Assembly (NCBI GenBank): GCA_002403075.1
Contig: DHHB01000012.1
Location: forward strand, 13,767 to 77,766
DNA: 64,000 nucleotides
Direction: 5' to 3'
From: a bacterium UBP1_UBA4783
GTDB taxonomy: Bacteria > Krumholzibacteriota > Krumholzibacteriia > Krumholzibacteriales > Krumholzibacteriaceae
Shown: positions 5,312 through 35,840 of the stretch, piece after piece
How positions within the stretch are numbered: position 1 is the first letter of the stretch
Layout: every line of letters starts with the position of its first letter
Notes under the pieces: generated by a model
The model's database searches: none
Told to the model about the DNA's origin: nothing
The model's input: only the letters and a program-made list of their open reading frames with translations
Translations under genes and position numbers: made by a program

Positions 5312-5314
5312 AGC

Positions 5315-5707: not shown

Positions 5708-5797
5708 CGGGCCCGAGCGGACTATCGTTCACAGTGGAACGGAGCCGCGGCGAAACGGGTATTGCAGATTGCTATGGAGTTTGCTATTTTCAGCTTG

Positions 5798-5803
5798 TAT
5801 AAT
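5798..5803 (+). promoter_or_regulatory. perfect -10 hexamer TATAAT inside a 380-bp AT-rich island upstream of the giant gene
   Basis: cttgTATAATaag. The -35 is poor. The surrounding 5708-6090 is the only strongly AT-rich stretch in the first 37 kb. Confidence 0.3.
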
Positions 5804-6090
5804 AAGTTACGCCAAGGCGCCGGCGGTCCTCGAATACCGTTCGCGGGTCAAGTCCCCGGAAATAGCGAGGGAACGACGCTCGAGCCGATCCAAAGAGAAT
5901 ATTGTAATCAATTAATTTAAAAGTCGTTACGTCACAAGAGGGGGGAGATTTTCGGCCGTCCGCCAATCGCCCGCTTGAGAGGAGCGGGAATTTGTCATAG
6001 CCTCTCGTGTGGCGGCGGTTGGTTGGCATGCACTTTGCGGTATTGATTCTGAACCATTTTCAGACCTCGGTCGGGAGCCGTATTCGAGAC

Positions 6091-18000: not shown

Positions 18001-19128
18001 AATCAGGTTTTCACGGTCGAGGCGTCGGCGTCGAAGGCCGGCGAGGCCGGCGTCGATACGGCCGGCGCTCGGATCGAGCTCGTCCTGCCCGCCGGACAGG
18101 GGTACGCGCTCGACGGCGCTACCGAAACGTACCGGAAGCCGTTCTATCCGGGCGGGTCCGTCGCGTGGCGGATCCGCGCGCCGGGCGCTCCCACGGCTCC
18201 CGGCATCCTGCGGCTGCGGTTCGCCGAGCCGTACGCGAGGGACGTCAACACGAACCTCGCCTGCGCGATCTCGCAGGGCGAGGTCTTCCTGCCGGTGCAA
18301 ACGGAGGCCGGGGCCGTCCGCATGTCGAACGTGTCGGCCGCCGATTCCATCCCGCCGGTCGTCGTTCCCCAGGGAGCCTCCGGGGTGCCGGTTATGCGGG
18401 CGGCGCTGCGGAACGCGTCGAGCTACACGATCGGTCTCGACACGGTGTACGTCGCCGTCACGGACGGTCGCGGACGCCTCGTATCGCCGCCGTCGCGTCG
18501 CATCGCCGCTCTCGCGCTCGTCGCCGGAGGCGTCAGGTACGAGACGGCGGCTCCGGGGCACAACCCCGTTCCGATGGCGGTCGATCACGGTTTCGAGATC
18601 GGTCCCGGCGCCGCGGACACGATCCTCATCGTCGCAGACGTCGCGGAGGACGCCCCGCCCGGGGAGCTCCGATTCGAGATCGAGCGGAGCGCGGACGTGA
18701 TCGTTTCCATCACCCTCGACGGCGGGGGCGCGGGCGAACGAGTCGGCGTCGTGAACGAGCAGGGCGGCGATATCGCGGGCTCGTTCCTGAGCGGACCGCT
18801 CTCGGTCATGAGCGCGCGGTTCGAGGAGTACGTTCACAACTACCCGAATCCGTTCCGCGCCGGTTCCCAGGAAACGCGTATCTGCTATTTCCTGACGCGG
18901 AACGCGGGCGTATCGATACGCATCTACGATCTCGCCGGCAGCCTCGTCTGGACGAAGGAGATTGCAGCCGGCGCTCCGGGCGGCACCGGTTCCCCGGAAG
19001 GGATCATGCACGAGATTGCATGGGACGGTCGCAACGCCAGAGGCGAGATCGTCCGAAACGGCGTCTATCTCTGCAAGCTCGAGGCGGGCTCGCAATCGGC
19101 GCTCTTCAAGATCGCCGTCGCGAAGTGA
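6091..19128 (+). CDS. giant (4345 aa) secreted adhesin-like protein: signal peptide, tandem Big_1 Ig-like repeats, further Ig-like domains, ~17 CARDB-like repeats, T9SS-type C-terminal sorting domain
   Basis: ATG at 6091 gives the signal peptide MNKRSNIRPAALVFGLFICMLAAAGAQA. The table ORF starts at GTG 6007. Six 101-aa repeats (FVAGPFDP..VDKTTI.ADG.D...VTVRDA.GNP..G..V.IEC.G.GN) fall within a longer series of Ig-like domains. Later ~120-aa repeats carry RN.G.. motifs typical of CARDB. The last ~95 aa match the TIGR04183-like CTD: YPNPFRAGS...RIYDLAGSLVW...WDGRNARGEIVRNGVYLCKLEAGSQ. Confidence 0.85.
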   Translation: MNKRSNIRPAALVFGLFICMLAAAGAQAGPGSGAASIAPSAAVAAGSAGTWTITYTAAETFVAGTIEIEIPDGWSAPQLSNSSARGFVTASSMGTLGTPALSISGRNIVVSVAALEVNQTVDVVYGDASIHQSGAAVAQSNPQTGVQFLVRSDSNGPGRMPIASSPRIDIVAIIAAQLVFVTPPRVFPADGESGAIGLATLDEFGSPSPVEADLRIHLASSAPTGRFSAAPGAGFSETDTVTILAGTDTAFFYYRDPVAGIKTITASAVEQGWIDPQQTVTVEPGEPFRLRAVPADTLAIAGEYVRYRLRIEDSLGNPSTASSSQTISLFGQPGSFYATADHSTPISQIVIPAGVSSISLDYRNTVKALSTPYILGFFDQDGTPPTLEAASASIYIDHAAYSPVASDVGSADPLAVADGADPVPLVAYVRDAFFNGVDGATVVFMATGSGNSISQPGGVTGSNGRANGSMTSTVAGQKTVTAHVGGVYIDHSVVATFVAGPFDPSVSDVAVDKSVAAADGADSISVTVTVRDAEGNAITGSVVTLECTGSGNAIRQPVGATGADGTARGSVVSTTAEAKTIRARANGLYLAEQAAVTFVAGPFDPDNSTVAIDKTTIVANGVDAGIVTVTVRDASGNPVSGRTVTIECSGGDNAIQQPAVPTGADGRAVGSVASTRAESKTVAARVDGVLVTETAPAIFVAGPFDANVSNLEVDKTTIVADGVDSVLVTATVRDANGNPIAGRAVTIECNGTGNTIRQPAGATDALGRAVGSVKSSVAAGKTITARVDALYLADAVPVVFVAGPFDPSVSGLGVDKTTITADGADSVLVTVTARDALGNPISGRTVAIECTGSGNAIHQPVGFTGADGRAVGSVKSTVAEAKTIRGRVDGALVAAAAAVSFVPGPFDPGVSEIQVDKTTIIADGVDAVSVTVRVRDADANPIAGALVAIECSGSGNVITQPVGVTGADGRAVGNVKSTVAEIKSVRARAGGVPLDDIVPVAFTAGALHHFIVTHAGSATAGVPASVTVDARDANGNKLTSFAGAVRVYPLRASAADEATWGLGNAAGSIVSETQDTVTYQFVFADAGDAELLITDRKVESVTIGASSGGVTSLSAAPLIVGPAAADSVFVVSGNGQRAVVDTPVPLPLVVAVEDRFGNRVSGVTVSFAVTAGGGYVDASVALPGQQTTAVTGIQGTASCEHWRLGTASGAGVNAVTASISTGGTREAYFTAIADHGPIASIVLAPASKPVTVNTETIVTATLRDAFGNLVFGQYVTMYIKDAPDGFLGAAPGSATEELSLWMRRGMSDSTGTVSVAYAAPATAGAQDVIDAYHNSIPAADVVDAVYSTVSSGATDLRATLLSGPTSQAGIAFSFLVEAVDGNGNRDLSNTSHIVLEPPPGGGFVFSLVDFGAPATEADLSAGAVVIYGRGTQAGAWQIAARDAAEFLAPAQCAVEIVANETVSSYAVAAPASATAGADFTLSAEARDAYGNRVLTAGYNIDFRAVRASDSTQAASRALSVASGTLANGLYSGANFRYEAAELIRIEVTSASNAAAGYSGAIAVDNAAAYLLAKIGGDSAGVAAGDSLRLRARVFDAFGNAVDGQNVFFTVQEGDGRVSSPLAVTDASGAAWVWFRTDTIRGTNRVRAAILDANPEGLETQSYTVATIPRSEVDRVELALSGTSFRAGEIFAGNVAAYDVYGNLIDTDSGTQLRPAALRASVDFNPEIMTLEAGRSSFAAFDSVAGANRIEILSLAGDTLSAPGASYTIAPAQAYRITEISGDTAGVTVGAGVELRVRVRDRYGNAVAGEIVRFQITSNLGGAPALWDGTGAPNDGIVLTGAGGAASCFLVTDPNAGLNTVTASILDADPPALERVVFEVGTIAGTIARFDVVPDGFAKKAGESFAVQIVAYDLNGNVAADDDTTRVDLGSDGSAAYAVNPVVLSGGRATANASDTVAERLVLRARTLAGGATSYSDTIVVSPEAPSGVIAFASVTPDTITANGTSVSSITTRPIRDMYGNVVSPGTLVRVTPSLGSVGSDDQDPSTPDTKERRTEASGAVSVFIRSASSPGASNVVFQSLSGSAAGTASVIFAPPPSCFYAGYLTPRHLVPTEAVELRCSAANVSATGVSLATATTISFADSAGHAYEAHLAAPMYLRGSSADTLRFASVAVPTGMLGGTYTPRVSLVGTDRYGYAYRGEFAAGSNSISISDVAIESVVAEKAILSRGDTFTVDVRVHNGGGSTVAVNDITLNYSNGLYGLVGSWDPPLPSNLAPGGVRVFRRSIFVLGYSPLGPDTIDASVTAQANGSQVQDPSAYPNVAAVVIQSAASIGYVAGTLAPDTVSQGQTHSFAVSFRNSGQAAVILNAADTRLGFTDGADAVSISLGFEGALPGNRTTELVFPPVEVPASVDAGSWPVTVRLRGTENGGHLDTTLVLSDQIRVVSPAALSYGSGTLAPPAVSKRSTVSFEAGIVNAGGATVMCDPDSTRFTFTDGSLAYTATLDPARGRSIGPGSSTLYFRAVAIPAGIAVGSYQPSMRIRGFENGLPFAADLALSDPVGVQEPSQLAITSTTVFPSPLVTADQSAPWFAAVQVQNNGGAAVRLESLSMRLLAGPVDVTGQCVLTPIDFVPNVDSLLGGESRAIAVRLDDNPSNGMTTGTIVIESAIAGRDLNSGAALLATTEYGGKGSYLVQTPASLVFTSISPSVDTVTALQTKDWILAVAVRNAGQSDMQIDLSPAATFVSFSTSGDFATIPPAALAGGGTLLEGGATDTLLWRVDRTGSVAGSCLIAATVRAVESNSGRAFVASSGAQGVRGNALVQTPAVLGIVGITPLQNPVTISQERSWSVEMEVRNTGQSDVALLLARVDSTRVAIPEGSGFVIGNPSSLAGGGTVLRGGAAGRLVFAVSTTGTAAPGAREIVGSVLAVESNSDRRVFASRAEGGDTVTLQLRPEPAYAAGSLAPTAASSGTSVSFEAAVETAAGLYATLVLDRGATILSFGDADGDTFRTALSAVSTNVLPPAAQRTLLFDANTIDPAVALGRHSASLRLVGEENGNPFSRVLPLAPDSILVERAPQLSISRVAVPPSVTRSQTAPWTVRMVLRNNGEASVDLDLSEAKTFLSFTIIGAGDRTYEYAVARPAALAGRGGTVLPGGAIDSLVFTITGTGSTPGIALVNGTVTGTDVNSNLTVSDDTYNGGFSHVAVELPGEPVVASSAPSRATVTSGQTTAWQIACEVCNTGEADLTLVPDSARVYRDDGEPLAHERPASFVEGGLALPGGACRHLLFSVSPTPVIPAGADIVLHARVALVENNNGIQRFFDTRLAGSGSGSIRVQSPALLSIALASCVSPRRPYVNEGQRFSVVVAAANGGEARAESVRLALEGSGSSAIEDTLAVMEAVAGGGAVSDTFFVIAAGAGDEVFTARLRGAVDANSGQEDLAAFASATDDTALVVIQVPASLAVTAVAPSQSAVNAGQTVEWTVRVSLRNFGEAPLEIDPPAPADVSFAIGGAAVGGYLVVAPDGFASGVTPLVLEGGASDSLIYRIAATGRDTGTVDVVAAFDWRDGNDPAAPRVPASGGCQVRVKPPSGLRILSVTSAAPNNAAFPNTSIVNTGQTFTVSVRVENTGGDDLDSVLVRLATNGVSGTVAAGDSIAYMPSRSERDFVSTVTAAPAPAVEYLRASIVKAVSVNTGERVTPAEAVESIENLRIELPALLACVASVTAPAGAVDDTLSTGQRFVVTAVVENEGQAGIDTTGRMTLVLPAGMDLADPGEPLAKRFAAGVPLAWTIVAPASPSLDTVLAAISSIPEDANIAAPAAVRNAEARVVVFVEPAARIENCAVSLAAPPGAVDGTLSTDQDFVARSSFVPSANADSLWVEIDPPAGFSVASETAKYVGRGTGAAVARDWIVRAPVSPAAVDTIAARVVGIDVNSGERIAPCRAVFAVRVVEKAALSLAGGISGPPEALDGVVSVNQVFTVEASASKAGEAGVDTAGARIELVLPAGQGYALDGATETYRKPFYPGGSVAWRIRAPGAPTAPGILRLRFAEPYARDVNTNLACAISQGEVFLPVQTEAGAVRMSNVSAADSIPPVVVPQGASGVPVMRAALRNASSYTIGLDTVYVAVTDGRGRLVSPPSRRIAALALVAGGVRYETAAPGHNPVPMAVDHGFEIGPGAADTILIVADVAEDAPPGELRFEIERSADVIVSITLDGGGAGERVGVVNEQGGDIAGSFLSGPLSVMSARFEEYVHNYPNPFRAGSQETRICYFLTRNAGVSIRIYDLAGSLVWTKEIAAGAPGGTGSPEGIMHEIAWDGRNARGEIVRNGVYLCKLEAGSQSALFKIAVAK
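7276..9093 (+). repeat. six in-frame tandem copies of a 303-bp unit (Big_1 Ig-like domain) inside the giant gene
   Basis: The motif ttcgtcgcgggtccgttcgatcc recurs at 7579, 7882, 8185, 8488 and 8791 (303-bp period). The first and last copies are degenerate at DNA level. Confidence 0.8.
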
Positions 19129-21035
19129 TGAGCATGAGAACGAAACGACGCAGCACGGCTATCTGGATTCTCGCGCTCCTTCCGCTCCTCGCCGGGCCGG
19201 TCGCCGCGCAGGAAGGAACGGGGGGGACGCGCTCTATTTTCGCGCTCGGGGCGGGCTCGCGCGCCATCGCCATGGGGGGCGCCTTTTCCGCCGCCGGCGA
19301 CGACGCATCGGTCCTCCTCTACAATCCGGCGGCGCTCGCGCTCAACCGGTACACATCCGTTCTCGCGACCCACGCCCGGCTCTTCTCCGGCTGGAGCGAC
19401 GCGGGGTACGATTTCCTCGGATTCGTCTATCCGACCGTTTCGGCGGGCGCCTTCGGCGCGGGCTTCATGACGGCCGGGACGGACGGCATCCGGGGATTCG
19501 ACGAATGGAGCCGCGAGACCGGCGAGCTCACCTATCGCGAGAGTCAGGCGGTCATCGCCTACGCGTACACCCTTCCGTGGCGGTACGCGGGCGCGGTCAC
19601 CGCGGGATCCTCGGTCAAGATGCTCAGTCAGCGCGTCGGGGACTATTCGGATACGGGCACGGGCGTCGACGTCGGATTCGTGTTCCGGCCGCGCTGGGTC
19701 GAGGGGCTCAGCCTCGGCTGCAACCTTCAGGATATCGTCGGCGCCGAGATCAAGCTCGTTTCCGTGAGTGAACCCGTCGATCGCACGATCATGATCGGGG
19801 CGGGGTACGCCCGCGCCTTCGGAAACGGTTCGGCGATCCTTCTCGCGGCGCAGATGGACGCGCCCGAACGAGGCGACTCGCGGTTCCGCGCGGGGGTCGA
19901 GTACCGGTTCCGCGGCCTCTTCGCGGTCCGCGCCGGTTACGACGGCGAGGGCGTGACGGCGGGCGTCGGCGTCGGCTGGCGCGGCTTCGGCTTCGACTAC
20001 GGCTACATGAGCCGGGAGGACGCCGGCAGCACGCATCCCCTCTCGCTGTCCGCCCGCGTCGGCTCGTCGGTCGACGATCGGGTGCGGATACGCGAGGAAC
20101 GGCGGCTCGCGGAGCAGGAACGCCGGATCCAGCAGATACTCTCGAGCCGGATCGCGGGCCATATCGCCGAGGCGGAGCGGTTCCGGCTCGAGGGAGCGCC
20201 CGCGAAGGCGCTCGACGAGCTCAAGATCGCCCTCGAATACGATCCGACGAATCGGGCGGTCGCCGACACGATCGCCGTGGTCGAGCGCGCGATCCTCGCC
20301 GCCGAACAGGAGCGCACGCGAAACGCGGAGAAATCCGCGCTCATCAACCAGCACTTCCGGCTGGGTCTCGAATACTACGGCACGGGGGATTACATCAGGG
20401 CGCGCACCGAGTGGCGGAGCGCGCTCGAGATCGATCCGGAGAACGCGCAGGCCGCGGAGTACCTCGGCGCGACCGAGGACAAGCTCGGGAGTCTCGCGGA
20501 TCAGCACCGGACGCGCGCGCTCGATCTCGAGCAGCGCGGCCAGCTCGCCGCGGCGCTCGGCGAGTGGAACATGGTGCGGACGATCGCGCCCGAGTCCGCC
20601 GAAGCGAACGCCGCCGTGCAGCGTCTGACCGCGCGCGTCGACGAGCTGAGCCGCGATTACCTCACCGCCGCCAAACGTCTCCGTGTCGCCGAGCTCTACG
20701 AAGGCGCCGTGAAGGCGTTCGGCGAGGGGCGGTACCCCGACGCCGTGCGGCAGATCAGAGAGCTGCTCGGCATCGATCCGAACCACGCGGAGGCCCGCAC
20801 GCTGCTGCGCCGCGCGGAGCGGCGTATGACCCCGCTCGACGACGCCGAAAAGGCGGCGATCCGCGCGCTCTACCTCGAGGGCATGAGGCATTTCACGAAC
20901 GGCGATTACCTAAAGGCCGTCGAACGGTGGCAGCGCATCCTCGAGATCGATCCCGACAACGAGAGCGTGCTGAGGAATATCGATGAGGCCTCGAAGCGGC
21001 TCCGCAACAGCGGCGCGGCGGGAGGCGCACGATGA
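19128..21035 (+). CDS. PorV/FadL-like outer-membrane beta-barrel fused to C-terminal TPR repeats
   Basis: ATG overlaps the giant gene stop (TGATG). Signal peptide. IFALGAGSRAIAMGGAFSAAGDDASVLLYNPAALA is a PorV/FadL-like N-terminal motif. The C-terminal 300 aa are TPR-like helical repeats (LEYDP, LEIDPEN, LGIDPNH, LEIDPDN). Confidence 0.7.
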   Translation: MSMRTKRRSTAIWILALLPLLAGPVAAQEGTGGTRSIFALGAGSRAIAMGGAFSAAGDDASVLLYNPAALALNRYTSVLATHARLFSGWSDAGYDFLGFVYPTVSAGAFGAGFMTAGTDGIRGFDEWSRETGELTYRESQAVIAYAYTLPWRYAGAVTAGSSVKMLSQRVGDYSDTGTGVDVGFVFRPRWVEGLSLGCNLQDIVGAEIKLVSVSEPVDRTIMIGAGYARAFGNGSAILLAAQMDAPERGDSRFRAGVEYRFRGLFAVRAGYDGEGVTAGVGVGWRGFGFDYGYMSREDAGSTHPLSLSARVGSSVDDRVRIREERRLAEQERRIQQILSSRIAGHIAEAERFRLEGAPAKALDELKIALEYDPTNRAVADTIAVVERAILAAEQERTRNAEKSALINQHFRLGLEYYGTGDYIRARTEWRSALEIDPENAQAAEYLGATEDKLGSLADQHRTRALDLEQRGQLAAALGEWNMVRTIAPESAEANAAVQRLTARVDELSRDYLTAAKRLRVAELYEGAVKAFGEGRYPDAVRQIRELLGIDPNHAEARTLLRRAERRMTPLDDAEKAAIRALYLEGMRHFTNGDYLKAVERWQRILEIDPDNESVLRNIDEASKRLRNSGAAGGAR

Positions 21036-24000
21036 AGCGCCGGGAACGCATACGGGATCGGGAAACCTTCCACCTCGAGGTTCCGGCCGACGAGAACAAC
21101 CTCAGCGAGGTCCGGGACTTCATCGCCAAAATATGCGACCGCGCGGGGTTTTCGAAGAGCGAGACGAACAACACGAAGCTCGCCGTCGACGAAGCGTGCA
21201 CGAACATCATCAAACACGCGTACAAAGAAAAGGGCGGAGACATACGGATCGACGTTCAGGCGTCGCCCGGCACGGTCGAGATCAGCATCTTCGACCGGGG
21301 CGAGCCCTTCGACTGGTCCAAGGTGAAAGAGCCCGATCTCGACCACTACGTCGAGATCGGCAAGAAGGGCGGCCTCGGGATCTATCTGATGAACCGCCTC
21401 ATGGACAAGCTCAGCTATTCGGCGTCGCCGGCGGGAAACCGCCTCTCCATGACGAAGCGGGCCGCGGCCGCCGCGGCCTCGCATATGCCGCTCTTCGATT
21501 CGATCATACGGCCGAAATGGACCTCGACGCTGCGCTTCAAATTCGCGATGCGGGCCGCGCTCGGGTTCTTCGGCCTCATCATGTTTCTCTGGGTGATCCT
21601 CTTCTACCGGCAGACGCACGATCTTCGCGACCGGGTCGCGGACGCCTGGCTCCAGCGCAAGCGCATCGCCGAGATCATCGCGAGCTCGAGCGTCGGCGCG
21701 CTCACGAAGGACCCGTACGACGTGAGCGGTCTCGAGCTCAGCACCGACGCGATTCCGCGTCAGATGCGGCGCGCCCCCGAGGTGAAATACATCCGCGTCG
21801 TGCACGAGGACGGACGAATCTTCGCTTCGAACCGGCAGGAGGAGTTTCTCACGGCGTACGCCGTTCCCGCCGAGGTTCGCGAGCTCGAACGCGGCGCCGC
21901 CTTCCGCTCCGTGCGCGACGACAGCCTCGGATCGATCCGCGAGTTCCATCAAACGGTGTATCTCACCGATTCGGAGCGGGGCCAGACGACGGCGATCGGA
22001 CGCGTCGTCGTCGGCGTTTCCGAGCCCCTCGTGACGGAGGACATCATCGACCCGCGGCCCATGATGACGCTGCTCCTCGTCGGCGTCTTCGCCGCGGGGG
22101 TCGCGCTCCTCTACCTGCTCGTCGCCATATTCGTGCGGCCGATCCAGGCGCTCACCGACGGCGTCCGGGCGATCGGCGAGGGATCCCTCAACGACGAGAT
22201 TCAGATCACGGGACCGCAGGAGATCGGCGAGATCGCGCGCGCCTTCAACGAGATCACTTCGAAGTTCCGCGACGCGCAGAAGAACGTCGTCGAGCAGGAA
22301 CGTCTCCACAAGGAAATGCAGGTCGCCCAGGAGATCCAGCAGACCCTTCTTCCGAAACGCGTGCCGGCGATCGGCGGCTACGACATCGCGAGCCTGTACC
22401 GTGCCGCCAAGGAGGTCGGCGGGGACTATTACGACTTCGTGCGGGTCGACGACGACACGCTCGGCGTCGTCGTGGCGGACGTCTCCGGCAAGGGCGTGCC
22501 CGGTTCGCTCGTCATGACGATGATCCGCACGGCCCTCCGCATGGAGGCGCGCGGAAACCACTCCGCCGCGGAGGTCATGGCGCGCATGAACGACTTCGTG
22601 ACGGAAGACATGAAGAAGGGCATGTTCGTCACGATTTTCTACTCGATCCTCGATTCGAAGAACCGCATCATCTCCTACGCTTCGGCGGGTCACAATCCGA
22701 TGATCCTGTACCGCGCCGAGACGGACGAGACGTATTTTCTCAATCCCCGCGGTTTTCCCGTCGGCATCAAACTGCCCGACGACACGCTCTTCCGCCGCTC
22801 GATCGACGTCGAGAAGATCAAGCTCAAGAAAGACGACATGCTCGTCATCTACACGGACGGCGTGACCGAGGCGATGAACGGGGATCGGGATCAGTACGGC
22901 GAGGATCGCCTCATCCGGCTCATCAAGGACTGCGGACGCCTCTCGCCCCAGGAGTTCATCGACCGTCTCAACGCCGACATCAAGGGCTTCACCGGCGATC
23001 AGCCCCAGAACGACGACATCACCGTCGTCGCGATCAAGGAAAAGCTCATGGCGGACGAGGTGCTCTACGGGATCCGCCGGAAGCTGCTCGATCTCGTCGA
23101 GGTCCAGGGGGTTTCGGTCGCCGAGGCGTGCCGGATGATGAGGGTTTCCCCCTCGACCTACTACCGCTACAAGAAGCGCCTCGTGGAGCTCGGAGATCGC
23201 GGGCTCCAGGACAAGACCCTGCGCCGCGAAGTCGATATCAGGCGAGTCAGCGTCGAGCAGCGAAAGGGCATTCTCGAGATCATCCGCGCGAATCCGCGCT
23301 TCGGCGCGAAGAAAATAGCCGCTCTGTACAACGAGGGGAAGGAAGAGCGGGCGCACCTTTCCGCGGCGATCGTCTACGACGAGCTCAAGCGTATCCGGCT
23401 GAACACCTACGAGATGCGGCTCGAGTACCTGCGCCGCAACCGTCTCATCACCGACGACGAATTCAAGACGCTCATGGCCGCCCACGGCAGCCGGCCGCGC
23501 GAGTCCGTCGAGGCGCCGGCGGGCGGGGAGATCGTCCCCGCCGACGCGGCCGCGGAGACGGAACCGGAAGCGCACAAGGCGAAGCACGTCCCCCGTGCGC
23601 CGCGAGCCGCCGCCGCGCCGGCGCGCCGCCGTTTCGCCCGCGAGGCGTTCGAGACGGGCGAGGGAACAGCGATCGAGGTCACGTCCGAGGAGCTCGACGG
23701 CGGCGCCGTCGCGCTCCACGTGGCGGGACATCTCGATTCGTCTTCGGCGGGCGAGCTCGAGGGGATCCTCGAGAGCGTGCACGAGTACGGATACCGGAAC
23801 ATCATCGTCGATCTCGCCGCGGTGACCTATATTTCGAGCGGGGGCTGGGGCATCTTCACGGGGCGGGTGAAAACGCTCCGCGAAGCCGACGGCGACGTGG
23901 TGCTCGTCGGCATGTCCTCGGAGGTATACGACATCTACGAGCTGCTCGGCTTCCAGCAGATCATCATGCAGTTCCCGTCCGTCGAAGAGGCCGTCGCCTA

Positions 24001-25243
24001 CATCGGCCTGCCGCTGGCCGAACGCCGGAGCCGCTTCGAGAAAGCGTCCCGCGAGGCGGCTCCCCTCGAGCCGGCCGAAACGCCGGTCGCCTCTGGAGAA
24101 GCGGCGGCCGGAAGCGAAGTAATCGCCGAGCCGGAGTCGCCCTGGGCGGCGCTCAAGATCGAAGCGGGGACGGTCGGCGGCCAGGGAGAGATCACGGTGC
24201 TCTATCTCGACGGCGTCGTCGATACGGTAAGCTGCGTGAAGCTCCGCGGCGTTCTGGACGGGCTCGTCGACCGCGGCGCCGTGAAGATCGTTCTCGACAT
24301 GTCGCGGGTCGAGTACGTGAGCTCGAGCGGCTGGGGCGTGTTCGCCTCGCGCATACGGGATATCAGGCTGCGAGCGGGAGACATAAAGATATTCGGCATG
24401 GATCAGGAAGTCGACGGAATATTCCACATGCTCGGATTCGATTCGATCATGCGCTCCTTCGGAATTCTCACCGAAGCGATCGAGGATTTCAAGAACGACG
24501 CCACCGCCCTCGCGGCGGAGGACGAAACGTTCGACGAGGAATCGCCGGAGGCGGCGGTCGCGGCGTCGGAGCGCGCGCCTGAGCCTGCCGCCGCGGCGCT
24601 CGCGATCGCTTCCGCCGGCGGGACGGGACGCGAGGGAAGGACCGTCGTCGTGAGGATCGACGGCGCGATCGACTCGTCGACCTCGGAGGCGTTCGAAGCC
24701 GAGCTCGACGCGCGATCCGCCGAGCGTCCGAAGAACCTCGTGCTCGATCTCAGCAGGCTGGTTTACATATCGAGTGGCGGATGGGGTATCATCATCAGAT
24801 ACATGCAAAAGCTCGGCGAAACCGGCGGCCGCGTCGTCGTCGCCGGCATGAACTCGATCGTTCTCAAGATATTCCGCGATCTCGGCTTCGAGCCGCTGAT
24901 CCCGCAGTACGGAACGCTCGAAAAGGCGCTCGAGGAGCTCGCCCCCGGGATGCGGGAGACCGAAGCGACTCCGGAAGAGGAGGCGTCGGCGCCGGTCGCT
25001 GCGGCTCAGCCCGGGGCCGAGGTCCGGAAGCACGATCTCGCCGACGCGCTGCTCGGCGCTCCGGATATGGCGCCGCTCACGCCGCTCGAGCCGGTCAAGG
25101 ATACGGAGAAGGTCATCTTCATCGATTTCAAACGGCGCACGGACGTGCGCGAGGACAAGGACAAGCGCATTAAGCGGCTCGGCTGGGACGAGTACGGCAA
25201 ACGGCTGCTCGATTCCGGCCGGAAGCCCCGGCGCACGAAGTGA
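21032..25243 (+). CDS. 1403-aa fusion protein: RsbW-like anti-sigma-factor kinase (GHKL) domain, 2 TM, HAMP, PP2C SpoIIE/RsbU phosphatase, IS3-type HTH segment, three STAS (anti-sigma antagonist) domains
   Basis: Single uninterrupted ORF; the ATG overlaps the upstream stop. aa 10-140: DEACTNIIKHAY and GGLGIYLMNRLMDKL (N/G boxes of RsbW/SpoIIAB). Hydrophobic helices at aa 166-192 and 344-367. aa 368-420: HAMP-like. aa 425-672: GGDYYDF, DVSGKG, SAGHNP, YTDGVTEA, DDITVV (PP2C). aa 675-815: VSVAEACRMMRVSPSTYYRYKKR (IS3 OrfA-like HTH). Three repeats of ..DL..V.YISSGGWG.. (STAS) at aa ~880-990, 1040-1150 and 1205-1300. Confidence 0.8.
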   Translation: MKRRERIRDRETFHLEVPADENNLSEVRDFIAKICDRAGFSKSETNNTKLAVDEACTNIIKHAYKEKGGDIRIDVQASPGTVEISIFDRGEPFDWSKVKEPDLDHYVEIGKKGGLGIYLMNRLMDKLSYSASPAGNRLSMTKRAAAAAASHMPLFDSIIRPKWTSTLRFKFAMRAALGFFGLIMFLWVILFYRQTHDLRDRVADAWLQRKRIAEIIASSSVGALTKDPYDVSGLELSTDAIPRQMRRAPEVKYIRVVHEDGRIFASNRQEEFLTAYAVPAEVRELERGAAFRSVRDDSLGSIREFHQTVYLTDSERGQTTAIGRVVVGVSEPLVTEDIIDPRPMMTLLLVGVFAAGVALLYLLVAIFVRPIQALTDGVRAIGEGSLNDEIQITGPQEIGEIARAFNEITSKFRDAQKNVVEQERLHKEMQVAQEIQQTLLPKRVPAIGGYDIASLYRAAKEVGGDYYDFVRVDDDTLGVVVADVSGKGVPGSLVMTMIRTALRMEARGNHSAAEVMARMNDFVTEDMKKGMFVTIFYSILDSKNRIISYASAGHNPMILYRAETDETYFLNPRGFPVGIKLPDDTLFRRSIDVEKIKLKKDDMLVIYTDGVTEAMNGDRDQYGEDRLIRLIKDCGRLSPQEFIDRLNADIKGFTGDQPQNDDITVVAIKEKLMADEVLYGIRRKLLDLVEVQGVSVAEACRMMRVSPSTYYRYKKRLVELGDRGLQDKTLRREVDIRRVSVEQRKGILEIIRANPRFGAKKIAALYNEGKEERAHLSAAIVYDELKRIRLNTYEMRLEYLRRNRLITDDEFKTLMAAHGSRPRESVEAPAGGEIVPADAAAETEPEAHKAKHVPRAPRAAAAPARRRFAREAFETGEGTAIEVTSEELDGGAVALHVAGHLDSSSAGELEGILESVHEYGYRNIIVDLAAVTYISSGGWGIFTGRVKTLREADGDVVLVGMSSEVYDIYELLGFQQIIMQFPSVEEAVAYIGLPLAERRSRFEKASREAAPLEPAETPVASGEAAAGSEVIAEPESPWAALKIEAGTVGGQGEITVLYLDGVVDTVSCVKLRGVLDGLVDRGAVKIVLDMSRVEYVSSSGWGVFASRIRDIRLRAGDIKIFGMDQEVDGIFHMLGFDSIMRSFGILTEAIEDFKNDATALAAEDETFDEESPEAAVAASERAPEPAAAALAIASAGGTGREGRTVVVRIDGAIDSSTSEAFEAELDARSAERPKNLVLDLSRLVYISSGGWGIIIRYMQKLGETGGRVVVAGMNSIVLKIFRDLGFEPLIPQYGTLEKALEELAPGMRETEATPEEEASAPVAAAQPGAEVRKHDLADALLGAPDMAPLTPLEPVKDTEKVIFIDFKRRTDVREDKDKRIKRLGWDEYGKRLLDSGRKPRRTK

Positions 25244-25247
25244 GCGA

Positions 25248-26024
25248 ATGAAGAAGTACGCTGTCATGACGATGAAGGGCGGGACGGGAAAGACGACGAC
25301 CGCCGTCTGCCTTTCGCACGGCCTTTCGCTCGCGGGGAAGCGCGTCCTCCTCGTCGACTGCGATCCGCAGCGGAGCGCCGCGACGAGCTTCGGCGTCAAG
25401 GGAGAGCGCGGGCTCGCGGAGCTCCTGACCTCGGGCGAAGTCGACATCCTGCAGGTGCGCGACAACCTGTTCTTCATCGATTCGGGCGGCCGGCGTCTCG
25501 CCGAGGTCGAGCTCGTTCTCGGCTCGCACGAGAACCGCGAGCGCCGTCTCTCCGAGGCTCTCAAGCATCTGAAGGGATGCGATTACGTGATCTGCGATTG
25601 CTCGCCGTCGCTCAACCTCATCAACATCAACGCGCTCGTATACTGCGACGAAGTGATCATACCCGTTTCGATGGATTATCTCGCGGAGAGGGGGGCGACG
25701 GAGACGGCGGGGATCATCGAGGAGATCCACGCGTTCAACAGCCGGAAACCGATATCCTTCCGGCTGCTCCCGACGTTCTACGACTCGCGCACGCGGCTCG
25801 CGCACCGCGTCCTCGAGGATCTGCGAGAGAGGTTCGGCGACCGCCTTCTCACGACGGTCATACGCATGAACCAGGCGATCAAGGAAGCGCCCGGCCAGCA
25901 GAAGACGATTTTCGAACACGCGCCGCTCTCGCGCGGCGCGTTCGACTATTACCATCTCACCGAGGAGATTCTCGGCCGCGATCGTCCGGGCGAGAGCCGC
26001 GTCGGCGAGTCCCAGGGAAGCTGA
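25248..26024 (+). CDS. ParA/MinD-family P-loop ATPase (orphan, no parB)
   Basis: Deviant Walker A MKGGTGKTTTA, DCDPQ, CDCSPS motifs. Starts 5 nt after the partner-switching gene. Confidence 0.85.
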   Translation: MKKYAVMTMKGGTGKTTTAVCLSHGLSLAGKRVLLVDCDPQRSAATSFGVKGERGLAELLTSGEVDILQVRDNLFFIDSGGRRLAEVELVLGSHENRERRLSEALKHLKGCDYVICDCSPSLNLININALVYCDEVIIPVSMDYLAERGATETAGIIEEIHAFNSRKPISFRLLPTFYDSRTRLAHRVLEDLRERFGDRLLTTVIRMNQAIKEAPGQQKTIFEHAPLSRGAFDYYHLTEEILGRDRPGESRVGESQGS

Positions 26025-26079
26025 TCTGGCGCCGGCGGGCGCGTTGTGCTACCATCCGGCCCGTACGGAAGGAGAACCG

Positions 26080-27198
26080 GTGACGGGGTTCGAGCTGAGG
26101 GAAGAGATCGATCACGGCGGCCGGAAGTACTTCCTGCAGACGAGCCTGCTTCCCCAGCGGGGGATCGTCCAAAGCTCGTTCTTCAGGAACGGCGTGCTGT
26201 TCGACACGGCGCACGTCTCCGTCGACGGCAAAGCCCCCGCCGAAGATCTGCGCCGCGCGGCCAAGGAAGCGCATCTCGACAACAAGCGCCGGTTCCTCAT
26301 CGTGCTCGGCGTGAGCGAGCGCGTCCGGGCCGCCGACGATCCGAAACCGCACGTGCGCATCGCCCAGGCGCTCGCGAGGCGCCACCTCTGCGAGGAAGCC
26401 GTCCGGGAGGCTCGGAAAGCGGTCGACAAGGGAAACAAGGATTCCCTCCCCTATTTTATCATCGGATCCTGCAGCTTCGAATCGGGGGATTTCGACGAGG
26501 CGATGAAGGCCGTGCAGGCGGGCCTCGCCATCAACCCCGAATACCCCGATCTGCACAACCTGCTCGGCGCCGTTCACCTCAAGCAGCGCCGTTGCCGGCA
26601 AGCGATCGAATGCTTCAACCGCGCCATCGGGCTCAACCTCTATTACGGCGAGCCGTACTTCAACCTGGCGCGCGCCTTCCTCCTCAACACGATCGTCAAG
26701 GAGGATTACGAGCTCTCGCGCGACATCGAGACCGCTTTCATCGGCAATCTCGACCGCGCGTCGCAGCTCGATCCGTATCTCGTCGCCGAGCGCGTCGACG
26801 AGGCCAAGAGGCTCTTTCGCGAGGGGGATTACGCCCGGGCGTACGAGACGCTCGAGAGCGCCAAGGGCCGCCCGGAGCGGGGAGGGATCGACGATATCGT
26901 GCTCGATCTCTACATGATGCTGCTCTACGACGGCGAGGACCTGCGCGAAGAGGATATCGAGGCGTATCTCGACCGGGTGAGGGAAATCGTCGACCAGAAT
27001 CCGACCTTCGCCGACGGGCACAACAGTCTCGGTATTCTGTATACCGCAAAGTGCAAGATATTCATGGACCGGGCGAACAAGGCCTTCCGGAAAGCCCTTG
27101 AAATCAATAGCAATTACCAAAAAGCCCAGAAGAATTTGCGTTTATCCGAGAACGACCGGCAAGGAATATTTATCCTTTTAAAGGCACTATTGGACTGA
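26080..27198 (+). CDS. TPR-repeat protein
   Basis: The table ORF starts at TTG 26044. GTG 26080 is preferred because AGGAG lies 5 nt upstream. Repeated helical TPR-like units (AINPEYPDLHNLLGAVHLKQRRCRQAIECFNRAIGLN, FRKALEINSNYQKAQKNL). Confidence 0.55.
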   Translation: MTGFELREEIDHGGRKYFLQTSLLPQRGIVQSSFFRNGVLFDTAHVSVDGKAPAEDLRRAAKEAHLDNKRRFLIVLGVSERVRAADDPKPHVRIAQALARRHLCEEAVREARKAVDKGNKDSLPYFIIGSCSFESGDFDEAMKAVQAGLAINPEYPDLHNLLGAVHLKQRRCRQAIECFNRAIGLNLYYGEPYFNLARAFLLNTIVKEDYELSRDIETAFIGNLDRASQLDPYLVAERVDEAKRLFREGDYARAYETLESAKGRPERGGIDDIVLDLYMMLLYDGEDLREEDIEAYLDRVREIVDQNPTFADGHNSLGILYTAKCKIFMDRANKAFRKALEINSNYQKAQKNLRLSENDRQGIFILLKALLD

Positions 27199-27243
27199 AC
27201 CTTGCTATCTTTAACCTGGGCATAGGAGAGGACCGGTCACGTT

Positions 27244-27612
27244 ATGGACAAGCTCGCCATAGACGTAGAATACGTCGATAACGTCGTCGTCCTGAAGCTT
27301 CGCGGCATCGTCGACTCCGGAACCGCGCAGTTTCTCGAGGATACGTTCAACGAGCTCGTCGCGGCGAGCACGGTCCGCATCGTCGCCGATCTCGGCGATG
27401 TGAACTACATAAGCTCGGCCGGCTGGGGGATATTCGTGGGGGAGATCAAGGGGATACGCCAGCGCGGCGGAGACATCAAGCTCGCGGCAATGCCTCCCGA
27501 CGTGAGGGAGGTGTTCGAGCTCCTCGAGTTCAGCACGCTTTTGCGGCCGTACGGGACGCGCGAGGAGGCGATCGCCGCGTTTACCGCGCATCAGAATACG
27601 AAAACGTCATAG
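27244..27612 (+). CDS. STAS-domain anti-sigma-factor antagonist (SpoIIAA/RsbV-like)
   Basis: VNYISSAGWGIFVGEIK motif. 122 aa. GGAGAGGA RBS. Confidence 0.8.
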   Translation: MDKLAIDVEYVDNVVVLKLRGIVDSGTAQFLEDTFNELVAASTVRIVADLGDVNYISSAGWGIFVGEIKGIRQRGGDIKLAAMPPDVREVFELLEFSTLLRPYGTREEAIAAFTAHQNTKTS

Positions 27613-27634
27613 CGCCGGAAGAAGCGAGGTTGGA

Positions 27635-28072
27635 ATGGAAGGGATCAACGTATCGTTCTCGAAGCCCGAGGATAATCCGGACGTGTCGGTGCTGTCCGTT
27701 CAAGGGTACGTGGATACCACGACGTCGGCCGAGCTCGAGGAGAGTCTGAAGAGGCTGCTCAAGAAAAACCGATTCAACATCGTCATCGATCTCGCCGGCG
27801 TGAACTATATCTCATCGGCCGGATGGGGCATCTTCATCAGCGAAATCAAATCGATCCGGGAGACCGGCGGCGATCTCAAGCTCGCCTCGATGGTCGCTGA
27901 CGTGTACGAGGTGTTCGAGCTCCTCGAGTTTCAAACGATCCTCGAGAGCTACGATACCGTCGCCGAAGCGGTGAAATCGTTCGGCGCGCCGGGAGGAGAC
28001 GCCGGATCGGAGAAGCCGGAAAGCCGCGCCGGCGCCAAGGTCGGCAGCACGCACGGACCGAAGACCGACTAG
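27635..28072 (+). CDS. STAS-domain anti-sigma-factor antagonist (second copy)
   Basis: VNYISSAGWGIFISEIK motif. 145 aa. Paralog of the previous gene. Confidence 0.8.
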   Translation: MEGINVSFSKPEDNPDVSVLSVQGYVDTTTSAELEESLKRLLKKNRFNIVIDLAGVNYISSAGWGIFISEIKSIRETGGDLKLASMVADVYEVFELLEFQTILESYDTVAEAVKSFGAPGGDAGSEKPESRAGAKVGSTHGPKTD

Positions 28073-28105
28073 ATCCCGGCTCGTTTCTTCCCTCGGAGAC
28101 GGCAC

Positions 28106-28140
28106 GAGCGCCGGCGCCACAGCGCCGGCGCTCTTTCTCT
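28106..28140 (+). terminator. rho-independent terminator after the STAS genes
   Basis: Perfect 12-bp stem gagcgccggcgc / gcgccggcgctc with loop caca, then tttctct. Confidence 0.55.
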
Positions 28141-28204
28141 ATGACGCCGCTCCGCTTTCTGATAGCATGAGAACCCGCCGCCCGGCCCCGAGGGAGAACG
28201 AGAT

Positions 28205-30367: not shown

Positions 30368-31665
30368 CGGAGCAGTCCGCCTTCCGCGCGGGACCGGCGC
30401 GGCGTCGAGCGCGCGAGATCGTTCTCGCGGCCGTACTCGTCGCGCTGTCGTCGGCTACGGTCTCCGCCGGACGATCGCCGGACCGGGCGCGAAAAGGGGA
30501 TCCCGCGGCGTACGCTCTCTTCAGGAAGATGTACGGAGCGTTGCGGGACGCGAAGACCCTTTCCCTCGAGAGCGAGTTCGTGTGGGAGACGAACGGCGAG
30601 GAGATCGGCCGCTCGTCCTACGAGCTTCGTCTCGGAAGACCGAACCTCGCTCGACTCGAATCGCGCAGCGGCGACGGCTCGCGGACGGGTATCATCGTCG
30701 TCGACGGCCGGGATATGTGGGTATATTGGCCGACCGGCCGGCCCTCTATGCCGGGGATCGATTCGATTCGCGCCCCCGAGGGCGTGGAAAACACCTTTAT
30801 CCGGCAGCCCGCTCCCGCCGGATCGCGGTCGATCGGCGGCGAGACGAACACCCTCGGAACGGGGATGTCGGCCCCGATCCTCGATCCGAGCATCTTTCAC
30901 GGACTCGCGGATCCCATGGAGCCGTTTCTCGACGAGGTGCGAAGCATCGGGATCTCGACGGTCGACGGCGAAATCTGCGACATCGTCGTCGCCGAATACG
31001 ACGAGCGCAAACGCAGCCGCGCCTTCTGGATCGCGCGGAGCGACGGTCTCCCGCGGAGGCTTATCGAAACGGTGCGGCTCGATCGCGAGATCGTGAAGCG
31101 CGAGCACTGGCGGAAGGTTTCGGTGAACGCGGCGATGCCCCGCGATCTCTTTTCGTGGCGGCCGCCCGCCGGCTGGGAGGAATACCTTCCGCCCACGCTC
31201 CATCGCGGGCTGCTTCCGCCCGGAAGCGTCGCGCCGGATTTCACGGTCGCGCTCCTCGACGGCGCGAGCTTCACGCTATCCGAGCAGCGGGGCAAAACGG
31301 TCTGGCTCTGTTTCTGGCGCCTCGCGTGTCCGCCGTGCCGCGTGGAGCTTCCGCATCTCGAACGGCTGCGCAAACGGCACGGGAAGAACGGGCTCGTCGT
31401 CCTGGGCGTCAACTTCGCCGATGACCGCGGCCCGGCGCTCGAGTATCTGCGCAAGGAGTCGATCGGTTTCGCGAACGCCGTCGACACCTCCGCCGCCGTG
31501 CAGGATCTCTATTACCGCCGCTACCAGACGCTGAAGGGCCACAGCGCCGTTCCTCTCAACTACATCATCGATCCCGAAGGCCGCGTCGCCGACGCGTGGT
31601 ACGGATACGAGAAGGGCTCGGGCGCGGGCAACGCCGCGTTGAAACGGCTCGGGGTCATCCGCTGA
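30364..31665 (+). CDS. LolA-like / TlpA-family thioredoxin fusion (thiol:disulfide oxidoreductase, CPPC)
   Basis: ATGA overlap with the upstream stop. Signal peptide. The C-terminal domain has WLCFWRLACPPCRVELPHLERL (thioredoxin CxxC) plus the redoxin-like VVLGVNFADD. Confidence 0.6.
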   Translation: MTEQSAFRAGPARRRAREIVLAAVLVALSSATVSAGRSPDRARKGDPAAYALFRKMYGALRDAKTLSLESEFVWETNGEEIGRSSYELRLGRPNLARLESRSGDGSRTGIIVVDGRDMWVYWPTGRPSMPGIDSIRAPEGVENTFIRQPAPAGSRSIGGETNTLGTGMSAPILDPSIFHGLADPMEPFLDEVRSIGISTVDGEICDIVVAEYDERKRSRAFWIARSDGLPRRLIETVRLDREIVKREHWRKVSVNAAMPRDLFSWRPPAGWEEYLPPTLHRGLLPPGSVAPDFTVALLDGASFTLSEQRGKTVWLCFWRLACPPCRVELPHLERLRKRHGKNGLVVLGVNFADDRGPALEYLRKESIGFANAVDTSAAVQDLYYRRYQTLKGHSAVPLNYIIDPEGRVADAWYGYEKGSGAGNAALKRLGVIR

Positions 31666-31755
31666 TCCGCGGACATCCGCGAACATATTTCTCTTGAAAA
31701 CGCTCGGGCGATCTGCTTGAATCGATCCCGGCTCGTGTGAAGGGTGGTGGTCGTG

Positions 31756-35776: not shown

Positions 35777-35840
35777 TCGATGGAAGGGCCCCCGCCATCG
35801 CGGCTCGGCGGGGAATGCAGGTAGGGGGAATTGTCGATGA

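Follow-up and report, generated by a model that had tools for sequence, protein, structure and literature searches.

We analyzed a 64,000-nucleotide stretch of contig DHHB01000012.1 (assembly GCA_002403075.1) from the bacterium UBP1_UBA4783 of the Krumholzibacteriota, referred to below as the window. Its plus strand holds an unbroken series of genes around a bifunctional membrane sensor that carries a kinase and a phosphatase on one chain, reading adhesin, PorV-TPR outer-membrane protein, sensor, ParA, TPR protein, STAS_A and STAS_B (Table 1). The GC content of the window is about 67%, at which long spurious open reading frames (ORFs) are common, and genes were accepted on high third-position GC (0.81–0.89). 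An earlier reading of the DNA alone, the original prediction, had placed a fusion sensor, a ParA ATPase, a TPR protein and two stand-alone STAS proteins at 21032–28072. Pfam matches and third-position GC (0.81–0.86 for the genes in this interval) agree with that gene content on the plus strand, and its count of five STAS domains for one kinase and one phosphatase is borne out by the Pfam matches. Long antisense ORFs, such as one of 1552 aa at 20906–25564 on the minus strand opposite the sensor, are high-GC artifacts that lack the coding signal in third-position GC.

Table 1 Features of the locus and of its neighborhood (window positions, unless a locus of a relative is named; TM, transmembrane helix; HTH, helix-turn-helix; RHH, ribbon-helix-helix; T9SS, type IX secretion system).
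Feature	Position (strand)	Length or residues	Remarks
Giant surface adhesin	6091–19128 (+)	4373 aa (ORF)	ORF opens at 6007; signal peptide after Met at 6091
PorV-TPR protein: PorV/PorQ-family outer-membrane barrel with C-terminal TPR	19128–21035 (+)	635 aa	Signal peptide
Bifunctional membrane sensor	21032–25243 (+)	1403 aa	
Sensor, kinase domain	21080–21457 (+)	residues 17–142	Cytoplasmic RsbW/SpoIIAB-type GHKL serine kinase
Sensor, TM1, periplasmic domain and TM2	21542–22135 (+)	residues 171–368	Periplasmic domain variable, ~150 aa
Sensor, HAMP and PP2C/SpoIIE phosphatase	22121–23038 (+)	residues 364–669	HAMP 364–407; PP2C 473–669
Sensor, bipartite HTH	23075–23431 (+)	residues 682–800	Transposase/paired-domain type
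Sensor, fused STAS domain 1	23696–23989 (+)	residues 889–986	YISSGGWGIF at nt 23828; best stretch for TIGR00377
Sensor, fused STAS domain 2	24149–24481 (+)	residues ~1040–1150	YVSSSGWGVF at nt 24314
Sensor, fused STAS domain 3	24635–24928 (+)	residues 1202–1299	YISSGGWGII at nt 24764; best stretch for PF01740
Sensor, C-terminal tail	25166–25240 (+)	residues 1379–1403	[KR][IL][RK]x[LMI]GWxxYGxxL, then poly-K/R
ParA, Soj-like ParA/MinD-family ATPase	25248–26024 (+)	258 aa	AAA_31 121 bits; CbiA match
Cytoplasmic TPR protein	26080–27198 (+)	372 aa	ORF 26044–27198; likely start GTG at 26080
STAS_A, stand-alone STAS protein	27244–27612 (+)	122 aa	STAS 64 bits
STAS_B, stand-alone STAS protein	27635–28072 (+)	145 aa	STAS 71 bits
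Terminator-like hairpin	28106–28133 (+)		Perfect 12-bp stem, 11 GC pairs, 4-nt loop, then TTTCTCT
Downstream neighbor	28205–30367 (+)	720 aa	Two N-terminal TM helices, VWA-like DRSRS motif, C-terminal TM helix
Lamin-tail-domain (LTD) protein	31744–33456 (+)		LTD 90 bits; T9SS-like FlgD_ig C-terminal domain, E 1.5e-4
RHH-like ORF of relatives	L084:15134–15406; L085:15287–15559	90 aa	Equivalents in L019–L023, L028, L032, L053

The start of the PorV-TPR gene overlaps the adhesin stop by 1 nt, and the ATG of the sensor overlaps the PorV-TPR stop by 4 nt (ATGA). ParA begins 4 nt past the sensor stop (the two genes overlap by 4 nt in the relatives L002, L084 and L085), and the spacing between the ParA and TPR genes is 55 nt. 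Because the start of the sensor overlaps the stop of the gene before it, and that gene overlaps the stop of the adhesin, position 21032 is not the boundary of a unit, although the original prediction had opened the unit there. At the other end, its proposal of a terminator after STAS_B fits a strong hairpin: the intergenic RNA that contains it folds more stably than every shuffled version (z = −4.4), and hairpins with T-runs also lie 3' of STAS_B in L008, L012, L032, L073 and L081. As we read this layout, 21032–28072 is the regulatory and signaling tail of a longer conserved operon, spanning roughly 6.0 to 28.1 kb. All genes of the operon are under purifying selection, as measured by dN/dS against two relatives.

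The signal peptide of the adhesin was read from its translation. Ig-like repeats of the protein match Pfam Big_1 (348 bits in 7 stretches) and Invasin_D3 (239 bits), and its C-terminus is a FlgD_ig-like domain (residues 4286–4362). The tail also matches TIGR04183 (Por_Secre_tail, the type A sorting domain of T9SS) at a marginal 23.2 bits against a cutoff of 23.0, with further FlgD_ig, PorU, PorZ and M6i tail matches alongside. In the PorV-TPR protein, the barrel occupies residues ~39–308 and the TPR domain residues ~390–620 (Pfam TPR matches; ~250 aa of repeats). The barrel scores 96 bits against the NCBIfam model NF033709 (PorV_fam; cutoff 90), and the orthologue at locus L061 scores 137.5 bits. 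Scores against the PorV, PorQ and PorV2 equivalog models are under their cutoffs, so that the protein is a family member belonging to no named orthologue group. Its TPR domain would lie in the periplasm. Judged by the overlapping genes, translation of the sensor is coupled to that of a T9SS-type cargo and of a dedicated PorV/PorQ-like outer-membrane protein.

The membrane sensor and its STAS proteins

Pfam matches give the domain order of the sensor as RsbW-type kinase, TM, periplasmic domain, TM, HAMP, PP2C, HTH and three STAS domains. The kinase domain scores 108 bits against HATPase_c_2 and 89 bits against the RsbW model NF003144, and contains an N box (DEACTN, residue 53), a G1 box (DRGEPF, 88) and a G2 box (GKKGGLG, 110). 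Conservation of sensor residues was assessed in an alignment of 17 diverse orthologues, in which N58, D88, G90, G110, G113, G114 and G116 of the kinase are invariant. The same holds for the metal-site motifs of the phosphatase, GGDYYD (463), ADVSGKG (482), YTDGV (607) and NDDIT (660), and for its aspartates D465, D483, D609, D661 and D662; the region scores 40.7 bits for HAMP and 175 bits for SpoIIE. The catalytic motifs of both kinase and PP2C domain thus read as intact, and the sensor gene as a whole has a dN/dS of 0.18–0.27.

Kyte-Doolittle hydropathy places the hydrophobic segments of the sensor at residues 171–194 and 341–368, and the periplasmic stretch is poorly conserved. Because HAMP follows TM2, the N terminus of the sensor and everything past TM2 are expected to be cytoplasmic. 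Kinase and phosphatase would therefore lie on the same side of the membrane, flanking the periplasmic domain. No Response_reg match was found in the sensor with Pfam; the input module consists of TM, periplasmic domain, TM and HAMP.

The original prediction had missed a conserved HTH region inside the sensor. It matches the Pfam families HTH_28, HTH_23, HTH_29 and HTH_32, contains an almost invariant SPSTYYRYKKR, and ranks with the best-conserved regions of the sensor, being present in the sensors of every lineage, including the KSB1-like ones and a minimal 825-aa version from Eisenbacteria. In an AlphaFold2 (AF2) model of residues 668–832 (pLDDT 82.5), the region forms two helical bundles joined by a flexible linker. 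A Foldseek search of this model against the PDB gave no significant match, the best being the Pax5 paired domain (E 0.41). The Eisenbacteria orthologue has a weak, sub-cutoff match to Sigma70_r4_2 (E 8.9e-5). A role as a mimic of sigma region 4 was considered and rejected, the Foldseek search having returned no significant match, and we keep the label "bipartite HTH". This region is a candidate output of the sensor and may bind DNA or protein.

The motif Y[IV]SS[AGS]GWG occurs exactly five times in the window, always at this locus. It had been described as the same in the stand-alone and fused STAS domains; STAS_A and STAS_B do share an identical motif (VNYISSAGWGIF), but the fused domains carry close variants of it (VTYISSGGWGIF, VEYVSSSGWGVF and LVYISSGGWGII). 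The second serine of the motif aligns with the phospho-serine of SpoIIAA/RsbV. This position is serine in 150 of 150 STAS motifs from 81 loci, and S936, S1098 and S1248 of the fused domains are invariant among the 17 sequences. Together, the three fused domains score 176 bits for Pfam STAS, and they are 30–39% identical to STAS_B. STAS_A and STAS_B are 50% identical as proteins, with 153 nt that are 74% identical as DNA.

Relatives of the locus and the ParA cassette

A profile scan over one genome per GTDB species returned 537 relatives of the sensor, the best 80 of which come from metagenome-assembled genomes labeled Krumholzibacteriota, Latescibacterota, Eisenbacteria, KSB1, Calditrichota, Cloacimonadota and others. 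More than 100 protein clusters share the full-length sensor architecture, with identities reaching down to 45%, and they are annotated merely as "anti-sigma factor antagonist". For synteny counts, the proteins of the window were mapped by tblastn onto the loci of relatives, using 63 loci with at least 2.5 kb of upstream sequence and 48 loci with at least 6.5 kb downstream. The adhesin and PorV-TPR genes lie directly 5' of the sensor in 62 of the 63, and a STAS gene of the STAS_B type is found downstream in 45 of the 48. Four relatives with precomputed Pfam annotation have the same gene order. The original prediction had proposed a comparison of gene neighborhoods, with lack of synteny as a result that would speak against it; synteny is strongly conserved.

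ParA and the TPR protein are distributed more narrowly. ParA is present in 20 of the 48 downstream loci and the TPR protein in 21; the two occur together in 20 of 20 ParA-bearing loci, and a TPR384-like gene is found once without ParA (L049). Loci that lack them (28 of 48 for ParA, 27 of 48 for the TPR protein) include all of the Eisenbacteria and KSB1 types, which have one stand-alone STAS protein. The original prediction had suggested a circuit that may be spatially organized; a part for ParA as the organizing core of the system is not borne out, given its absence from these 28 loci. From this distribution, ParA is a later, lineage-specific addition to a conserved operon.

The relatives differ in the sensor as well. 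In Eisenbacteria, the 825-aa sensor comprises kinase, TM, HAMP, PP2C and HTH without fused STAS domains, and one stand-alone STAS gene overlaps its stop. KSB1-like sensors (L061:9986–14983 and similar loci, L052–L072 and L080) are 1500–1665 aa long, end in a TPR domain, and are followed 3' by one STAS gene and then by the housekeeping genes Obg, DprA and GltX. After the HTH they carry a linker of ~650 aa that is highly acidic and probably disordered. The ParA/TPR-bearing clade is the same one that gained the fused STAS domains and STAS_A. It divides into the clade of the window and a sister clade, clade B, whose sensors are 45–49% identical to that of the window. STAS motifs number one per locus in the Eisenbacteria and KSB1-like types, 4–5 in clade B, and five in the clade of the window.

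STAS_B shares 63% identity with the Eisenbacteria STAS protein and 58% with that of the KSB1-like loci, compared with 41–48% for the sensor, and its dN/dS is 0.08–0.19. STAS_A is not found in the Eisenbacteria or KSB1-like loci. On these identities, STAS_B corresponds, as orthologue, to the one STAS protein that all lineages with the system have in common, and it is likely the primary substrate. Because of its identity and phyletic pattern, STAS_B appears to be ancestral, and STAS_A, the fused STAS domains, ParA and the TPR protein appear to be later additions. A search for STAS_B homologues gave only Krumholzibacteriota-type proteins among the best 120, and no cultured tractable host.

The ParA of the window has intact Walker motifs, including a deviant Walker A (KGGTGKT, residues 10–16), and its best solved relative is Soj of T. 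thermophilus (1wcv, E 5e-41). It scores under the curated cutoff of every NCBIfam ParA, BcsQ and MinD model. Orthologues are 57–85% identical, with a dN/dS of 0.17–0.18, and in 20 of 20 ParA-bearing loci, at sensor identities of 45–98%, the gene overlaps or abuts the sensor stop. The original prediction had noted a ParA without a ParB. That holds for the window, but in clade B an RHH-like adaptor directly follows ParA: a 90-aa ORF, seen in this clade alone, that lies between the ParA stop, which it overlaps, and the TPR gene and is conserved at each of the ten loci of this kind. Its basic N-terminal tail has the form K[RK]S[LIM]GRDxFED (e.g., KRSLGRD), and its core, VxVRLTPxxLKHLD...SRxELIRIAITLL, reads as RHH, with a match to Pfam RHH_1 of only E 0.011. 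A positively charged, disordered N-terminus has been given as a general rule for ParA partners, and ParA genes usually adjoin the genes of their cargo (PMC10241942). The clade B protein fits this rule and has the look of a ParG/omega-type ParA adaptor, and the ParA cassette probably began as a ParA-RHH pair.

Both ends of the sensor were considered as elements linked to ParA. At the C-terminal tail, which ends the sensor in both ParA-bearing clades, G1384, W1385, G1389 and L1392 are invariant. A similar motif (IGWFGLRRALKRL) is present in the C-terminal extension of a KSB1-like STAS protein (L061:15110–15787), and the tail was rejected as a ParA-specific element on this ground. At the N-terminus (21032–21070), sensors from the clade of the window, which has ParA and no RHH gene, start with a short basic peptide, MKRRERIRDRETF in the window and VKKKGLL... 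in relatives; in clade B, with the RHH gene, this end is longer and neutral. The idea that MKRRERIRDRETF replaces the RHH adaptor as a ParA-stimulating peptide was dropped as non-discriminating, since the ParA-less Eisenbacteria sensors are also basic there.

The start of the cytoplasmic TPR protein is likely the GTG at 26080 because its orthologues are 372 aa long. The protein matches Pfam TPR families and would be a cytoplasmic scaffold, since it has no signal peptide. Its AF2 model (pLDDT 91.7, pTM 0.86) consists of an N-terminal four-stranded beta-sheet, a long helix and a TPR superhelix, for which Foldseek returned only generic TPR matches. The dN/dS of the gene is 0.23 against L004; a value of 2.16 against L018 was discarded as an alignment artifact, the high-scoring pair having run through an upstream stop codon.

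Proposed mechanism and its alternatives

Partner-switching modules are known mostly as sigma-factor switches. In Rsb/SpoIIA-type systems, the kinase sequesters a cognate alternative sigma factor that is usually encoded in the same operon. The few non-sigma cases (SypA, BtrV, HsbA and SiaC) have outputs that are hard to connect. Consistent with the original statement that no sigma factor is encoded here, none of the ORFs with third-position GC support in the 64-kb window was found to contain a Sigma70 domain. The precomputed Pfam annotation of ±10 kb around the loci of four relatives likewise lists no sigma factor, and a scan of genes past the KSB1-like locus L061 found none. An adjacent sigma factor is probably not the output.

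SypE contains a central receiver (REC) domain, and the chlamydial RsbU phosphatase is of the transmembrane HAMP-PP2C type. In Vibrio fischeri, SypE combines kinase and phosphatase on one chain, and SypA acts on an unknown non-sigma target (PMC8256260, PMC4517449). The window resembles this system in having an RsbW-like kinase and a PP2C domain in one polypeptide, a stand-alone STAS protein with the conserved serine, and a position within a locus for a cell-surface structure. However, SypE is cytoplasmic, whereas the catalytic domains here flank two TM helices, a periplasmic domain and HAMP, with no REC domain; the sensor also adds the HTH and three STAS domains in cis, and the surface structure concerned is an adhesin with a PorV-like protein rather than a polysaccharide, accompanied by ParA and TPR accessories. 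Rv1364c of Mycobacterium tuberculosis unites a sensor, PP2C, GHKL kinase and STAS on a single polypeptide and acts on its own STAS domain (PMC7693655). All four domain types share one ORF here too, but in a different order, with the kinase N-terminal and PP2C after HAMP. The sensor of the window is moreover embedded in the membrane with a periplasmic domain and an added HTH, has three fused STAS domains where Rv1364c has one, is joined by two further STAS proteins in trans, and has no known sigma link, whereas binding to SigF has been reported for Rv1364c.

Other systems share single aspects. RsbU-RsbW-RsbV1/V2 of Chlamydia trachomatis likewise pairs a sensor phosphatase bearing a periplasmic domain with more than one STAS substrate per kinase (PMC8256260). 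Its RsbW is a separate soluble kinase, in contrast to the kinase fused to the N-terminus of a membrane protein here, and the system is described as targeting a sigma factor and is not known to have an adhesin, PorV or ParA context. The Bordetella partner switchers BtrU-BtrV-BtrW control type III secretion (PMC8256260) and so resemble the window as Rsb-type proteins that regulate a secretion process not purely via a sigma factor; they are three separate soluble proteins, tied to type III secretion rather than T9SS, without fused domains or ParA. Recalling the PorV/PorQ proteins and T9SS type A cargo of Bacteroidota, the window encodes a putative cargo, with a marginally matching C-terminal sorting domain, next to a PorV/PorQ-family barrel. 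In P. gingivalis, the T9SS cargo PorA is reported as a ligand of PorXY, an inner-membrane sensor system (PMC12152298), which is a conceptual precedent for reporting the status of outer-membrane secretion to the cytoplasm. Unlike these, the barrel of the window is extended by a C-terminal TPR domain of ~300 aa, the sensor belongs to the partner-switching enzymes and not to the histidine kinases, and the hosts are uncultured candidate phyla of the FCB group, in which the proposed tie to T9SS comes from the cargo tail and the barrel. An analogy with the stressosome (RsbR/RsbS/RsbT) was rejected on architecture: the kinase is fused to a membrane protein, an N-terminal domain of the RsbR kind is lacking, and RsbT has no separate counterpart. 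The one point of likeness is that a single kinase goes with several STAS domains.

For ParA, the likeness is to orphan ParA/MinD proteins (PpfA, ParC, McdA, BcsQ, FlhG), which share the deviant Walker A and a position beside a putative protein cargo (PMC10241942, PMC11407121). The sister clade also recalls type Ib ParA-RHH pairs (ParF-ParG, delta-omega), since the small partner encoded there combines a basic, disordered N-terminus with a core of RHH appearance. Unlike both groups, the ParA of the window has neither adaptor nor centromere and falls below all NCBIfam cutoffs for ParA, BcsQ and MinD. Transmembrane partner-switching sensors and adhesins are not among the ParA cargoes in the literature cited here.

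We lean toward a composite reading, an apparently non-sigma bifunctional partner switch, similar to SypE and Rv1364c and tied to a T9SS-type adhesin, with ParA as an add-on for positioning. The kinase and PP2C domains on one chain would set the phosphorylation of the conserved serine (Y-I-S-S*-x-G-W-G, asterisk) in the STAS proteins, of which STAS_B would be the ancestral one and the main substrate. As later duplicates, the three fused domains and STAS_A would probably act as pseudo-substrates or buffers in cis, comparable to the fused STAS of Rv1364c. The input would be a periplasmic cue, most likely the state of the adhesin/PorV-like complex; the TPR domain of the barrel could reach the periplasmic domain of the sensor, and HAMP would then shift the balance between kinase and PP2C. 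Unphosphorylated STAS protein would act on a non-sigma partner, as with SypA or BtrV, candidates being the kinase domain of the sensor itself, the built-in HTH, or the pair formed by ParA and the cytoplasmic TPR protein. That pair would have been acquired in one clade, probably from a partition-type ParA-RHH cassette whose RHH gene survives in the sister clade, and ParA, with the TPR protein as scaffold, would most plausibly position or space the sensor/adhesin complex. Gene content, intact catalytic and acceptor motifs, operon coupling and the phyletic pattern are shown by the sequences themselves. What the sensor responds to, what it acts on and what ParA does are steps that we infer, and they are the weakest of this reading. 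A tentative and rather improbable extension is that the operon senses surface contact or adhesin load: the TPR domain of the barrel would report secretion of the adhesin or tension on it, STAS phosphorylation would follow, and ParA would position the complex along the cell in the Krumholzibacteriota/Latescibacterota clade. If this were true, no earlier partner-switching system would have been devoted to type IX secretion or adhesion, and this would be the first ParA with a membrane sensor-adhesin assembly as cargo.

Several observations weigh against the composite reading. The sensor is tied to the adhesin and PorV-TPR genes only by conserved adjacency and overlapping codons. The T9SS C-terminal domain of the adhesin clears its cutoff by just 0.2 bits, and the match of the periplasmic domain of the sensor, to the Cache-like family sCache_3_2 (E 2.4e-4), is below cutoff. 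As for the ParA cassette, the RHH adaptor is absent from the window, in which tblastn with the 90-aa protein of the sister clade found no match, and no iterons, parS-like or centromere-like repeats were found in 25000–28300 or 4800–6200. The TPR domain on the KSB1-like sensor (L061) has no significant similarity to the stand-alone TPR protein, and so provides no Rosetta-stone link between them. The hairpin after STAS_B was detected in some relatives and not in all. Lastly, Rv1364c is reported to bind SigF in vitro (PMC7693655).

Two of the alternatives concern ParA. In the version closest to the original prediction, 21032–28072 would be a self-contained, non-sigma circuit organized by an orphan ParA that positions cytoplasmic cargo, with this positioning as the purpose of the locus. 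Its tight coupling to the sensor fits this, as do its company of TPR protein and extra STAS in 20 of 20 ParA-bearing loci, the purifying selection on it, the hairpin after STAS_B and the usual proximity of ParA genes to cargo genes (PMC10241942). However, we consider such a circuit distinctly unlikely: the coupled upstream genes are far more constant than ParA (62 of 63 loci versus 20 of 48), the Eisenbacteria and KSB1 types have the system without ParA and a stand-alone TPR protein, and the sensor is an integral membrane protein rather than cytoplasmic cargo. At the other extreme, ParA could be an unrelated passenger, the remnant of a decayed plasmid- or chromosome-type partition cassette. 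The ParA + RHH pair of the sister clade is typical of type Ib partition cassettes, the RHH gene has been lost in the window, and the closest solved relative is a chromosomal Soj; yet the gene holds the same position in all 20 ParA-bearing loci, keeps its Walker motifs and a low dN/dS, and is always paired with the TPR gene, which makes a mere passenger very improbable.

The other two concern the output. A classical anti-sigma system in trans, in which the kinase sequesters a sigma factor encoded elsewhere and unphosphorylated STAS protein frees it, is suggested by RsbW and SpoIIAB as the best named matches of the kinase domain and by the chlamydial Rsb system, described as possessing a transmembrane RsbU and a target sigma factor. 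We regard it as rather unlikely, given that no sigma gene was found in the 64 kb, in the ±10 kb of the four relatives or in the genes scanned after L061, that the kinase is tethered to the membrane with three STAS domains in cis, and that the genes which constantly accompany the sensor encode an adhesin and an outer-membrane protein instead of a master regulator of a regulon. The HTH could instead be the output, with the sensor acting as a membrane-tethered regulator like ToxR or CadC whose HTH is masked according to the state of kinase and STAS and controls the adhesin operon. Its high conservation in every lineage, down to the 825-aa Eisenbacteria sensor, is in keeping with this, as are its confidently modeled helical bundles, which resemble a bipartite paired/transposase DNA-binding domain, and the weak sub-cutoff Sigma70_r4_2 match in Eisenbacteria. 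But the best fold match is not significant, a search for operator-like repeats 5' of the adhesin gene found none, it is uncertain whether an HTH midway along a large membrane protein could reach DNA, and HTH folds can also make protein contacts. Control of the operon by the HTH is accordingly doubtful in our estimate, although the HTH as output is compatible with the composite reading.

All parts of the system belong to known families. The combination, kinase-TM-sensor-HAMP-PP2C-HTH-STAS(x3) with coupling to a T9SS-type adhesin/PorV-TPR pair and a ParA add-on, was not found described, and text searches found no literature that joins partner switching or STAS with type IX secretion, or Krumholzibacteriota with T9SS. 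The linkage to an adhesin and a PorV-like protein, in hundreds of genomes from at least six uncultured phyla of the FCB group, offers a testable candidate for what such a switch senses or controls. In widespread lineages of sediment and soil, it would represent a conserved level of control over surface adhesion that has gone unannotated. The relatives form an evolutionary series, from one STAS protein, to five STAS domains with ParA and TPR, to ParA with an RHH adaptor, and this series lends itself to the questions of why STAS domains have multiplied and what role an orphan ParA plays next to a membrane complex. As no cultured host is known, tests would have to be heterologous or in vitro.

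Neighboring genes in the window

Past the hairpin, the gene for the 720-aa neighbor is probably in a separate transcription unit. Its product matches VWA_2 with an E of only 0.0098, and the gene is syntenic in 31 of the 48 downstream loci, including those of Eisenbacteria. Together with the LTD gene, it is syntenic with the system in Krumholzibacteriota, Latescibacterota and Eisenbacteria, and not in the KSB1-like loci. The plus-strand interval 28205–37445 also holds a 207-aa ORF, a 505-aa ORF with a lipoprotein-like signal (34259–35776) and a 534-aa ORF, none with a family match. An AhpC/TSA-like gene (30517–31665) is inserted in the closest relatives only.

Just 5' of the adhesin gene are two plus-strand genes for glycogen-binding-type proteins of the CBM48/AMPK1_CBM kind (2943–4880 and 4910–5311), preceded by an 800-aa ORF without a family match (544–2946). 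Further upstream of the adhesin operon, a 173-aa DUF4388 protein (13–534, plus strand) also scores above the NCBIfam cutoff for an MshE-related cyclic-di-GMP-binding motif (41.2 bits; cutoff 38); no homologue of it was seen in the related loci, whose flanks rarely extend that far. Elsewhere on the plus strand are ordinary signaling genes unrelated to the locus: two tandem HTH_3-cupin regulators at 47163–48363, and, at 55990–59144, a GAF-HisKA-HATPase histidine kinase with a stand-alone receiver and a PAS-HisKA fragment.

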